Virus genome (UHGV): UHGV-0003687
Origin: a virus
DNA: 38,938 nucleotides
Direction: 5' to 3' (one strand)
The position numbers and the translations under genes are program-made. The notes beneath the pieces are model-generated. The model had not been told where the DNA came from and ran no database searches. It saw only the letters and a list, made by a program, of their open reading frames with translations. Below, in pieces: positions 17,331 to 19,114 of the stretch (positions within the stretch are counted from its first letter, which is position 1; every line of letters begins with the position of its first letter).

Positions 17331-17462
17331 TTAAATCCTTCCCTGTTTTCTCAACTCTTCGACCTCTTCCGTGGTGAGTTTTCTTGGCTTACTTGGCAAT
17401 GATATTCTATCTAAGTATGCTTCATACGCCTCTTTCTCTTGCTTTGTCATTTTCTCCCTCAT
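17331..17462 (-). CDS. Small ORF (43 aa, MREKMTKQEKEAYEAYLDRISLPSKP...) translationally coupled to the ART-fusion gene (ATGA overlap)
   Basis: Its ATG overlaps the TGA of the upstream gene. No ORF-track entry because it is under 60 aa. Confidence 0.3.
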   Translation of the reverse strand: MREKMTKQEKEAYEAYLDRISLPSKPRKLTTEEVEELRKQGRI

Positions 17463-19114
17463 ACAATCACCTCCAATTCAATTTCGCTTTCTTTCTTTGA
17501 TATTACTCTAAAAACATTGTTTTTGTCAAGTAAAAACTCTCTTTGCCGTGGATATTTACTCACCTTTTCGATATATGCACCTTTGCAACCCTTCGGCGCG
17601 TATATTGTAATCTTATACGGCTTATTCAATGCTGCTCCCGGAACTACGGAAGTGCTTATAAATTGAGATTCCACAAATATATCTCCTGGTTTATAGCCAG
17701 CATAAATATCTATGTCCATGTTCCGATAACAAATCACATCTCTTTCTAAGCTGCTTTTCTTTATGGCTTCCGAAATTGTGTCTACGTATCGCCGTAAACT
17801 TTCATTCTCTGGTGCATCGCCCCTCAGCATTGCATTGAGCCTTTCAAAAAACCTGTTCGGCTTCTCGTCTCCCGAATTATATGTATATTTCTTGATAGCG
17901 CGTTTTTCCACATCCGTCAATCCGGTTATCCAATCTTCCGAGTCTCTCCTCAACACATCAACAACTTGATCCTGCGGAACCGCTCTAAAATTAGCCAGCG
18001 GTCGCTTGGATTCTGCATATTGGCGGCTATCCATGTCTCCTGTTCTAAACCTTGCATTCTTCCATGCCTGCTCCTTTCTTCGGTACTGCTGCTGATTCCC
18101 TTCATCCAGCGAATACCTTGCCAACCGCCCAAAGCGCTCTTCCTGTCGCTTGGCATACTGTTCTTTCTGATCCTTCCGGTAGTCATCCTCTATGTCCTGC
18201 AACTCCGCCTTGGTGTATGATGCCCCTGGCTTGGTTATTCCCTCAAAATAAGTGGTGTGGGTATCCTTGCACCTTGGATGATATAACCCCCGCGCTATAG
18301 CCGTACTCATGAGCATATACGGACCATCTGATTGTGTCCCTCCGCTCCACACATCATCTATCAGCACCTTACCCACAAATGGTAGGCACTTCGGGCAGGC
18401 ATTCCCCCGCTTTTTCATGATAACAAGGGAAATCCCCCATTCCTGCCGTTTCTCGCCCTCTCCGGTAAGGTAGGCGCGCTTGCTGGCCGTCTTTATCGCC
18501 ATCGTAGCGTAATCGGTGATGGTATGCCTTGCACCATTGGCGTACTCAATACAGTTGATCCCACGACCAAGAAAATCCTTGGTTGCCATGTCCACTGCCT
18601 TTTCGTATGTACCGGCTCCGGTGTTTGCATACACCTGGGCATTGAAGATCACCTTCCTGTACTGATCCTCTGCCATTCGCAGCATAGCGTGTTCGGCTTT
18701 CTTGAAATCGTTCTGTGTTGCCCGAATCAGAGCGTCAAGCTTACGGTCGTTTATTCGGAAGAATTCCGCCATCGTTGTAATGCTGTTCTTGGACGCTTTG
18801 GATGGCTTGAATCCCTTCTTGATGGCATTCAGGATCTTAATCTCCTGTGCCATGCCGCCCTGCGCCCTTGCTTCGGATATGATGGAAGATATCGCTCCGT
18901 CAATATCACTGAATTTCCCCTGGAACCGTGTTCTGTTTGCCCGTTTGTACTCTTCCAAGGCTTGCAGTTGGAGCGCCTGCCACATCTCCCATTCTTTTCC
19001 CTCGTCGATCTCTTCCAGACGATGCCGCTTCATATTGCGGATCATGGATTCCATCAACTCATTTTCGACCGCCCGGAAGGCTTTTTCGATGTCATAGTCT
19101 GCCAATGCTATCAC
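17459..19114 (-). CDS. Minor head protein (SPP1 gp7 / Phage_Mu_F-like) fused to a C-terminal ADP-ribosyltransferase (ADPrib_exo_Tox-like) domain
   Basis: 551 aa. The N-terminal two-thirds is the head-morphogenesis family that always follows the portal gene. The C-terminal ~180 aa carries the R-S-E ART triad: Y-R (VICYRNMD), S-T-S (FISTSVV) and an ARTT-loop Q-x-E (PRQREFLLDKNNVFRV). Confidence 0.75.
   Translation of the reverse strand: MIALADYDIEKAFRAVENELMESMIRNMKRHRLEEIDEGKEWEMWQALQLQALEEYKRANRTRFQGKFSDIDGAISSIISEARAQGGMAQEIKILNAIKKGFKPSKASKNSITTMAEFFRINDRKLDALIRATQNDFKKAEHAMLRMAEDQYRKVIFNAQVYANTGAGTYEKAVDMATKDFLGRGINCIEYANGARHTITDYATMAIKTASKRAYLTGEGEKRQEWGISLVIMKKRGNACPKCLPFVGKVLIDDVWSGGTQSDGPYMLMSTAIARGLYHPRCKDTHTTYFEGITKPGASYTKAELQDIEDDYRKDQKEQYAKRQEERFGRLARYSLDEGNQQQYRRKEQAWKNARFRTGDMDSRQYAESKRPLANFRAVPQDQVVDVLRRDSEDWITGLTDVEKRAIKKYTYNSGDEKPNRFFERLNAMLRGDAPENESLRRYVDTISEAIKKSSLERDVICYRNMDIDIYAGYKPGDIFVESQFISTSVVPGAALNKPYKITIYAPKGCKGAYIEKVSKYPRQREFLLDKNNVFRVISKKESEIELEVIV

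Follow-up and report, generated by a model that had tools for sequence, protein, structure and literature searches.

A MuF-family phage protein with a C3/VIP2-type ADP-ribosyltransferase domain and a strictly linked small partner reading frame in the virus genome UHGV-0003687

Polymorphic toxins built on the MuF domain of phage head proteins were defined by Jamet et al. 2017 (BMC Biol 15:75; PMC5576092), and ADP-ribosyltransferases (ARTs) account for 14% of the 191 MuF toxins of that survey. Many ARTs of the Alt/VIP2 family fused to MuF have since been reported by Iyer, Aravind and colleagues (PMC9503650, PMC5512222), and MuF-VIP2 fusions are present in Microbacterium phages (Jacobs-Sera et al., PMC7302621). 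One such protein, Bxa from a Bacteroides stercoris prophage, has been characterised experimentally: it acts on arginine residues and poisons bacteria, and two immunity proteins encoded next to it counteract its effect (PMC11699363). As for the fate of these proteins in the virion, SPP1 gp7 is present in the capsid in few copies, bound to the portal and to the DNA, and is released at ejection, a behaviour known for SPP1 gp7 only (PMC10083569), and Alt of phage T4 is an ART that is packaged in the head, injected with the DNA and active on the host RNA polymerase (PMC9503650, PMC5512222). Here, we describe a locus of the virus genome UHGV-0003687, a stretch of 38,938 nucleotides (nt) analysed as a whole and hereafter called the window, in which one gene, MuF-ART, joins a head-protein domain to a C-terminal ART domain and is followed by a 43-amino-acid (aa) open reading frame (ORF), orf43. 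MuF-ART is an uncharacterised member of the MuF polymorphic toxins, with an architecture known since 2017; a first-pass annotation made from the sequence had implied that the fusion of an ART to a gp7-like protein was new, and in this it was mistaken, since MuF-ART fusions are described in four of the studies cited above (PMC5576092, PMC9503650, PMC7302621, PMC11699363). We propose that MuF-ART is a MuF-family phage toxin with an exchangeable C3/VIP2-type ART module, restrained by the product of orf43 and delivered by the capsid to a recipient bacterium, a reading to which we assign a probability of about 0.8.

The same annotation had taken the C-terminus of the protein for a C3/VIP2-like ART with Y-R, STS and Q-R-E as its catalytic motifs, and profile searches, alignments and structure prediction all bear this out. 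The Pfam family PF03496 (ADPrib_exo_Tox) matches residues 393-539 with E=1.3e-19 and 70.8 bits, against a curated cutoff of 23.4 bits, and a weaker Pfam match is given by PF01129 (ART; E=1.5e-6). In phmmer and profile alignments, the R, STS and QxE residues fall on the catalytic positions of the solved enzymes C3larvin (4tr5), Plx2A (5urp) and C3stau2 (1ojq), and the ADP-ribosylating turn-turn (ARTT) loop, Y-P-R-Q-R-E, is aligned with Y-K-G-Q-Y-E of C3larvin and Y-P-G-Q-Q-E of C3stau. Across 112 aligned homologues R464, S487, Q524 and E526 do not vary, and Y463, T488 and S489 vary hardly at all. In an AlphaFold2 model built on the alignment of these homologues, residues ~380-551 have a predicted local distance difference test (pLDDT) score of ~90, and a Foldseek comparison of the domain with the PDB returned 107 matches at E<=1e-3, all 50 of those listed being ARTs of the C3/VIP2/iota type. 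At the top stand Lmo0066 (8za7_B; template modelling (TM) score 0.81, normalised to the target), Plx2A (5urp), Certhrax, C3bot, C3stau and VIP2, with a Foldseek probability of 1.0 for 8za7_B, 5urp, 4fk7, C3bot and VIP2. The domain is homologous also to the ARTs of binary toxins and to Tre1 of the type VI secretion system (6dre/6drh). The reading of the loop as QxE, as in C3-type enzymes, rather than ExE was likewise correct, the closest solved enzymes with QxE being C3-like, whereas Lmo0066 has ExE. These data confirm that the C-terminus of MuF-ART is an R-S-E ADP-ribosyltransferase with a complete R/STS/QxE set. In C3 and iota toxins such a full R-S-(Q)xE set, together with an intact ARTT loop, marks enzymes that transfer ADP-ribose to proteins, and NAD+-dependent transfer is the activity predicted for the domain.

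The N-terminal part is a MuF2 (Phage_min_cap2) head-protein domain, presumed to be the portion that targets the protein to the capsid and the portal, and a single match to phrog_581, 'minor head protein', spans residues 6-544 of the protein (E=6.7e-75). An SPP1 gp7-type head domain, encoded directly after the portal gene, had been expected from the first reading of the sequence. The superfamily was right and the family was not: the match is to PF06152 (MuF2), while PF04233 (Phage_Mu_F), the SPP1 gp7 family, has no Pfam match in the 551-aa protein at E<=0.1, and the two families belong, with MuF3 and MuF4, to one superfamily (Jamet 2017, PMC5576092). In the same way, the gene does lie in the head module downstream of the portal gene, but a small ORF matching phrog_25639 intervenes. 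The combination of PF06152 and PF03496 is common to more than 100 protein clusters of 63-98% identity, some of which carry the NCBI names 'phage minor capsid protein' or 'ADP-ribosyltransferase exoenzyme'. Those clusters with a named source are from Lachnospiraceae. Among GenBank phages, a single record found by tblastn covers at least 80% of MuF-ART, and it is an unannotated faecal contig with 43% identity.

The toxin part of the gene is exchangeable. The locus was compared with 80 IMG/VR loci and 73 genome loci that carry this MuF2 scaffold (loci are denoted L with a number). In a metagenomic sister phage (L001), the MuF protein is 96% identical over the N-domain and ends in CdiA_C (PF18451) instead of the ART. 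DNA identity between the two phages is 0.93-0.97 on both flanks and falls below 0.45 from ~18030 (codon ~361, between FRTGD and MDS) to ~16905, an edge that sits just before the ribosome-binding site of a 58-aa ORF, so that the ART domain, orf43 and a YjcQ-family gene are exchanged together. Base composition changes at the same place: the GC content is 0.415 in the exchanged block and 0.510 in the MuF N-domain, and GC at third codon positions (GC3) falls from 0.611 to 0.395 inside the MuF-ART ORF. On the same MuF2 scaffold the relatives carry the QxE ART, PF03496 domains of other subtypes that share less than 40% identity with it, CdiA_C or a PBECR2 nuclease, besides several C-termini without any Pfam match and one variant with a weak, sub-cutoff match to a zincin-like peptidase. 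This swapping of toxin domains on one scaffold is textbook polymorphic-toxin behaviour.

In the sister phage with CdiA_C, ORF calling gave no protein-like immunity candidate after the toxin gene, and the sole candidate there is a hydrophobic ORF of ~41-55 aa (MMIILFILGIADPRGFCWMLFWLLILW...; L001:6739-6906, plus strand). A product of this kind would be odd as an immunity protein for a CdiA_C toxin.

Directly downstream of MuF-ART, orf43 starts with an ATG that overlaps the stop codon of the toxin gene and is preceded, 7 nt upstream of its ATG, by the Shine-Dalgarno (SD) sequence GGAGG, which lies inside the conserved ELEV codons of MuF-ART. Its occurrence was followed with a family hidden Markov model searched against six-frame translations of the loci. 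In the IMG/VR set the family is present in 42 of the 43 loci with the QxE ART and in none of the 37 with other C-termini, and in the former its ORF terminates 116-161 nt beyond the stop codon of the MuF gene; the independent genome set gives 5/5 and 0/63, which brings the combined sets to 47/48 against 0/100. The family comprises ORFs of 39-55 aa with a variable N-terminal half and a conserved C-terminus, LTxEEIExLKKEGRI, and it retains start codon, SD sequence and C-terminus across ART domains that are just 45-67% identical. The pair is kept also where the ART is not fused to MuF, namely in a split gene (L082/83), with a stand-alone ART of 303 aa (L084/85) and with a stand-alone ART of 165 aa (L086/87), each time with a 4-nt overlap between ART and partner. 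Moreover, the pairwise divergence of the family follows that of the ART domain (Spearman 0.71; partial correlation 0.65 given MuF) and does not follow that of the MuF N-domain (partial 0.14). Because the family is linked to the QxE ART in 47/48 against 0/100 loci, including split and stand-alone ARTs, orf43 likely encodes the cognate immunity or inhibitor protein of the ART, which is the most economical reading of its distribution. This linkage is possibly the one new detail of the locus.

It is unlikely, in our judgement, that orf43 is instead an assembly chaperone, an adaptor or a regulatory peptide for the ART, or a conserved reading frame without function. Such roles would suit a very small product of which 47% of the residues are charged and which has no recognised family, and the toxicity of a MuF toxin can be lower for the full-length protein than for its isolated toxin domain, so that immunity may be non-essential (PMC10083569). 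The conservation of start codon, SD sequence and C-terminus described above, however, speaks against these readings, the family is kept in loci that offer it no MuF domain as an assembly partner, and its position and coupling match those of known toxin-immunity pairs (Jamet 2017, PMC5576092). The peptide itself is hydrophilic, with a grand average of hydropathy (GRAVY) of -1.36, and basic, with an isoelectric point of 9.2.

The pair takes other forms among the relatives. In three loci (L023, L026, L029) the partner ORF lies in the frame of MuF-ART, with a TTG start ~1 nt after the stop codon, and therefore stop-codon readthrough would fuse the partner to the toxin. In L082 (2237-4866), and in L083, the homologous MuF-ART gene is broken exactly between residues 279 and 280 by an 852-nt insert, which carries an HNH/NUMOD homing-endonuclease ORF and interrupts the invariant GLYHPRCKD motif; the two halves are in the same frame, with a stop codon after residue 279, and the L082 insert has no Rfam match at E<=0.1 as a group I or group II intron. 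In L086 (188-4991), and in L087, the stand-alone 165-aa ART, a 55-aa partner ORF and a Tad2-like gene (PF11195) are located directly downstream of a 1212-aa Cas9 gene.

The course of events that we propose for the capsid-delivered toxin is the following. Upon late expression MuF-ART would be made together with the translationally coupled orf43 product, which would keep the enzyme inactive in the producing cell, in the role of an immunity protein or antitoxin. The MuF domain would bring few copies of MuF-ART into the procapsid at the portal and, at infection, these would leave the capsid with the DNA, after which the ART domain would use NAD+ to modify a residue of a cytoplasmic target of the recipient bacterium. 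Capsid entry and ejection are proposed because of the work on SPP1 gp7 (cited in PMC10083569) and by analogy with T4 Alt; delivery by ejection, which the first-pass annotation had also suggested, is the standing hypothesis of the field for MuF toxins.

Several points weigh against this account. Packaging and injection have not been demonstrated for any MuF toxin (PMC10083569). The MuF part of the AlphaFold2 model is poor (pLDDT 30-60), and the placement of the ART in the capsid cannot be read from it. As regards the partner, a length of 43 aa is short for an immunity protein, neither Pfam (best PF21826, E=0.013, below cutoff) nor NCBIfam gives a significant family for orf43, and the Fisher test of its association with the ART in the IMG/VR loci (p=4e-22) is not corrected for shared ancestry. 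Finally, eukaryotic RhoA is the substrate of the solved QxE enzymes nearest to MuF-ART, and a bacterial recipient has no Rho GTPase; therefore the enzyme would have a different, bacterial target or, as Bxa, would act also or instead on proteins of the animal host after lysis.

This last point opens onto an explanation that we consider quite improbable, namely that MuF-ART is a host-directed exotoxin or fitness factor, aimed at eukaryotic cells and freed when lysogens lyse, which ADP-ribosylates Rho-family GTPases (at Asn41) or other proteins of the gut epithelium, its fusion to MuF being incidental to delivery. Among solved enzymes with both QxE and the aromatic ARTT residue, those closest to MuF-ART are indeed C3larvin, Plx2A and C3stau/C3bot, the relatives of the phage come largely from gut samples and gut Lachnospiraceae, and Bxa, encoded by a Bacteroides prophage of the gut, is a MuF-ART that modifies cytoskeletal proteins of epithelial cells and helps in colonisation (PMC11699363, PMC10083569). 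On the other hand, the identity to C3-like enzymes is just 16-26%, no secretion, cell-entry or translocation module was detected in MuF-ART by Pfam, signal peptides not having been tested, and the module of ART and partner is found also as a stand-alone unit beside conflict genes of bacteria and mobile genetic elements. The strictly linked and coupled partner ORF, furthermore, suggests an enzyme with harmful effects in the bacterial cell, although immunity proteins accompany Bxa as well. A bacterial target is favoured, not decisively, because of this strict linkage and of the presence of the module next to bacterial conflict genes. Very improbable, lastly, is that the ART domain acts chiefly by NAD+ glycohydrolysis, which would deplete NAD+ as a metabolic toxin or to counter NAD-dependent defence, and not as a target-specific transferase: ART-fold NADases do exist among polymorphic toxins, Tne5 being an example, and Tad2-like genes (PF11195) share the slot downstream of MuF in several relatives and adjoin a stand-alone ART, but the full R-S-(Q)xE set and the intact ARTT loop, including the aromatic residue for substrate recognition, are conserved, and Tad2-like genes also lie beside non-ART MuF variants (L051, L052, L076) and are therefore associated with the slot, not with the ART.

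Within the reading of MuF-ART as a capsid-delivered toxin a more specific suggestion may be made, tentatively: the family of 39-55-aa ORFs could be a hitherto undescribed, peptide-sized inhibitor specific to a clade of QxE C3-like ARTs with a bacterial, non-Rho target, and the ART and its peptide could form a self-contained mobile module, either fused to MuF for capsid delivery or carried free, including next to Cas9 and Tad2-like genes. If this were true, it would point to conflict between phage and host or between phages, rather than to toxicity for the animal host, with host takeover, counter-defence or superinfection exclusion as the roles to be considered.

The features of the locus and of its surroundings are collected in Table 1. 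Read along the minus strand, the genes are large terminase (TerL), portal, small ORF, MuF-ART, orf43, YjcQ-like gene, 58-aa ORF, scaffold and major capsid protein. The window holds a holin and an endolysin at one end and a repressor, an Abi-like gene and a serine recombinase at the other, and is essentially the whole genome of a temperate siphovirus-type phage, with serine integrase, repressor and lysis genes all present. No megablast match was found among GenBank phages for 24 kb of it; the relatives are located in chromosomes and metagenome-assembled genomes, mostly of Lachnospiraceae (Lacrimispora, Enterocloster, Blautia, Parablautia, Roseburia, Hungatella), and the sole 95%-identical match comes from a metagenomic bin assigned, perhaps unreliably, to Paludibacteraceae.

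Table 1. Coordinates of the features of the MuF-ART locus and of its genomic surroundings in the window.
Feature	Position	Strand	Remarks
MuF-ART polymorphic toxin gene	17459..19114	-	551 aa, GTG start; PF06152 + PF03496; phrog_581
MuF2 (Phage_min_cap2) head-protein domain, residues 8-327	18134..19093	-	PF06152, E=3.8e-35, 121.9 bits vs cutoff 26.3
Helical linker, residues 328-392	17939..18133	-	Recombination junction near codon 361 (between FRTGD and MDS, ~18033); helices 302-352 in model
C3/VIP2-type (R-S-E) ADP-ribosyltransferase domain	17498..17938	-	PF03496 residues 393-539; folded part ~380-551
Y463-R464, catalytic Arg motif	17723-17728	-	Checked by translation; aligned with YR of C3larvin, Plx2A
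S487-T488-S489, STS motif	17648-17656	-	Checked by translation; aligned with STS of C3larvin, Plx2A
ARTT loop Y521-P-R-Q524-R-E526 (QxE, aromatic residue three positions before Q)	17537-17554	-	Checked by translation
orf43, 43 aa, candidate cognate immunity/inhibitor protein	17331..17462	-	ATG overlaps MuF-ART TGA (ATGA)
Hairpin directly after orf43, terminator-like, weak U tail	17301..17332	-	-16 kcal/mol, z=-3.7 (found by eye and folding)
YjcQ-family winged-helix protein, 107 aa	16954..17277	-	PF09639, E=2e-26; inside swapped block
Hairpin and U-run after YjcQ gene, terminator-like	16922..16955	-	-20.3 kcal/mol, z=-5.1 (found by eye and folding)
Exchanged cassette versus sister phage L001 (ART domain, orf43, YjcQ)	16905..18033	-	Alignment identity profile; low GC
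Small conserved ORF between portal and MuF genes	19111..19374	-	phrog_25639; kept in most related loci
Portal protein gene	19286..20842	-	phrog_533, E=4e-87
Large terminase (TerL)	20839..22236	-	
Scaffolding protein gene	15918..16580	-	phrog_2303, E=3e-46; downstream edge of accessory-gene slot
Major capsid protein gene	14801..15877	-	
Repressor	34943..35449		
Serine integrase (large serine recombinase)	37177..38877		

The interval between the MuF and scaffold genes (16884-17330 of the window; the same slot in L002-L081) is a hotspot of accessory genes. Among the relatives it contains YjcQ-like winged helix-turn-helix proteins, Tad2-like/DUF2829 proteins (L002, L025, L030, L046, L051, L052, L076), proteins of ~100 aa with the sequence 'MKKLFISQPMRGKTDEEIL', and lipoprotein-like ORFs. 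The YjcQ gene was considered as an immunity gene and rejected: in the IMG/VR loci with the QxE ART it occurs in just 7/42, plus the window itself, it is found in 4 non-ART loci, and it is absent from a 95%-identical relative (L088). Judged from this distribution, it is an accessory gene unlinked to the ART. A scan for consensus promoters and terminators around the cassette gave counts no higher than in shuffled sequence and did not pick up the hairpin that follows orf43.

The ORF between the portal and MuF genes is 72-87 aa long. With the ATG at 19374 as its start it would share 89 nt with the 3' end of the portal gene; the PHROG match starts at residue 16, so that translation probably begins at a site further downstream. 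At the other end of the ORF, the stop codon overlaps the GTG start of MuF-ART. Between repressor and serine integrase, the Abi-like gene (35845-37005, plus strand) matches phrog_2158, 'abortive infection resistance protein' (E=2e-55), and is probably a defence moron encoded by the prophage.

The role of MuF toxins, that is, whether they ride in the capsid, what they target in the recipient and whether it is the phage or the lysogen that they benefit, is still open in the field, and this locus leaves the picture unchanged. What it adds are the exact boundaries of the cassette, a pair of sister phages with ART and CdiA_C, the exclusion of YjcQ as the immunity gene and a family of 39-55-aa partners of the QxE ART clade. 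The two sister phages differ essentially in the toxin cassette only and constitute a natural isogenic pair, and a candidate inhibitor so small and so strictly linked is easy to synthesise. Somewhat puzzling is the QxE loop, since the known QxE relatives act on eukaryotic Rho and MuF-ART presumably works inside bacteria.

The locus may also be compared with known systems. T4 Alt is likened to MuF-ART by mode of action, not by sequence, and serves as the working model for its action. T4 is a lytic myovirus, and a capsid-targeting sequence, rather than a MuF fusion, serves to load Alt on its scaffold core. The C3-like exoenzymes (C3bot, C3stau, C3larvin, Plx2A) share with MuF-ART the R/STS/QxE residues, the aromatic ARTT residue and the fold, with Foldseek E-values of about 1e-10 to 3e-12 and TM scores of 0.62-0.73 normalised to the target. 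They are secreted and modify eukaryotic RhoA at Asn41, and they are stand-alone proteins of ~25 kDa, whereas here the enzyme forms the C-terminal part of a 551-aa phage head protein. The best match by both structure and profile (root-mean-square deviation 2.7, hmmsearch E=6e-18) is Lmo0066 of Listeria monocytogenes (PDB 8za7), likewise a compact ART of ~180 aa, paired with an immunity protein in what is called an 'ART-ARH type toxin effector-immunity pair'; it differs in its ExE motif, in having an ARH-type immunity protein and not a 43-aa peptide, and in not being fused to MuF.

The MuF-VIP2 proteins of the Microbacterium phages Percival, Goodman and Johann, annotated as predicted virion components, share the two-domain idea (PMC7302621), but their hosts are Actinobacteria, Goodman and Johann are lytic, and the MuF domains, ~22-28% identical, are related only distantly. 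Bxa, likened by description, has in common with MuF-ART the MuF head domain with a C-terminal mono-ART, the prophage of a gut bacterium and the adjacent immunity genes, here a candidate; it differs in its greater length (869 aa, which include a middle domain), in its modification of arginine and in the phylum of its host. Its immunity is provided by an ARH-type hydrolase (BAH) and by Bsi, whereas here the interval from the MuF gene to the scaffold gene, the one part of the window screened for it, contains no hydrolase-type immunity gene. The MuF toxins of Jamet 2017 remain the class to which the locus belongs: it shares with them the MuF2 N-domain, the position in the head module downstream of the portal gene, the exchangeable C-terminal toxin, the small downstream ORF and the temperate Firmicutes phage, and it is set apart by the extra small ORF that separates the portal and MuF genes and by forming a specific clade with a QxE ARTT loop and a dedicated partner ORF of 39-55 aa.

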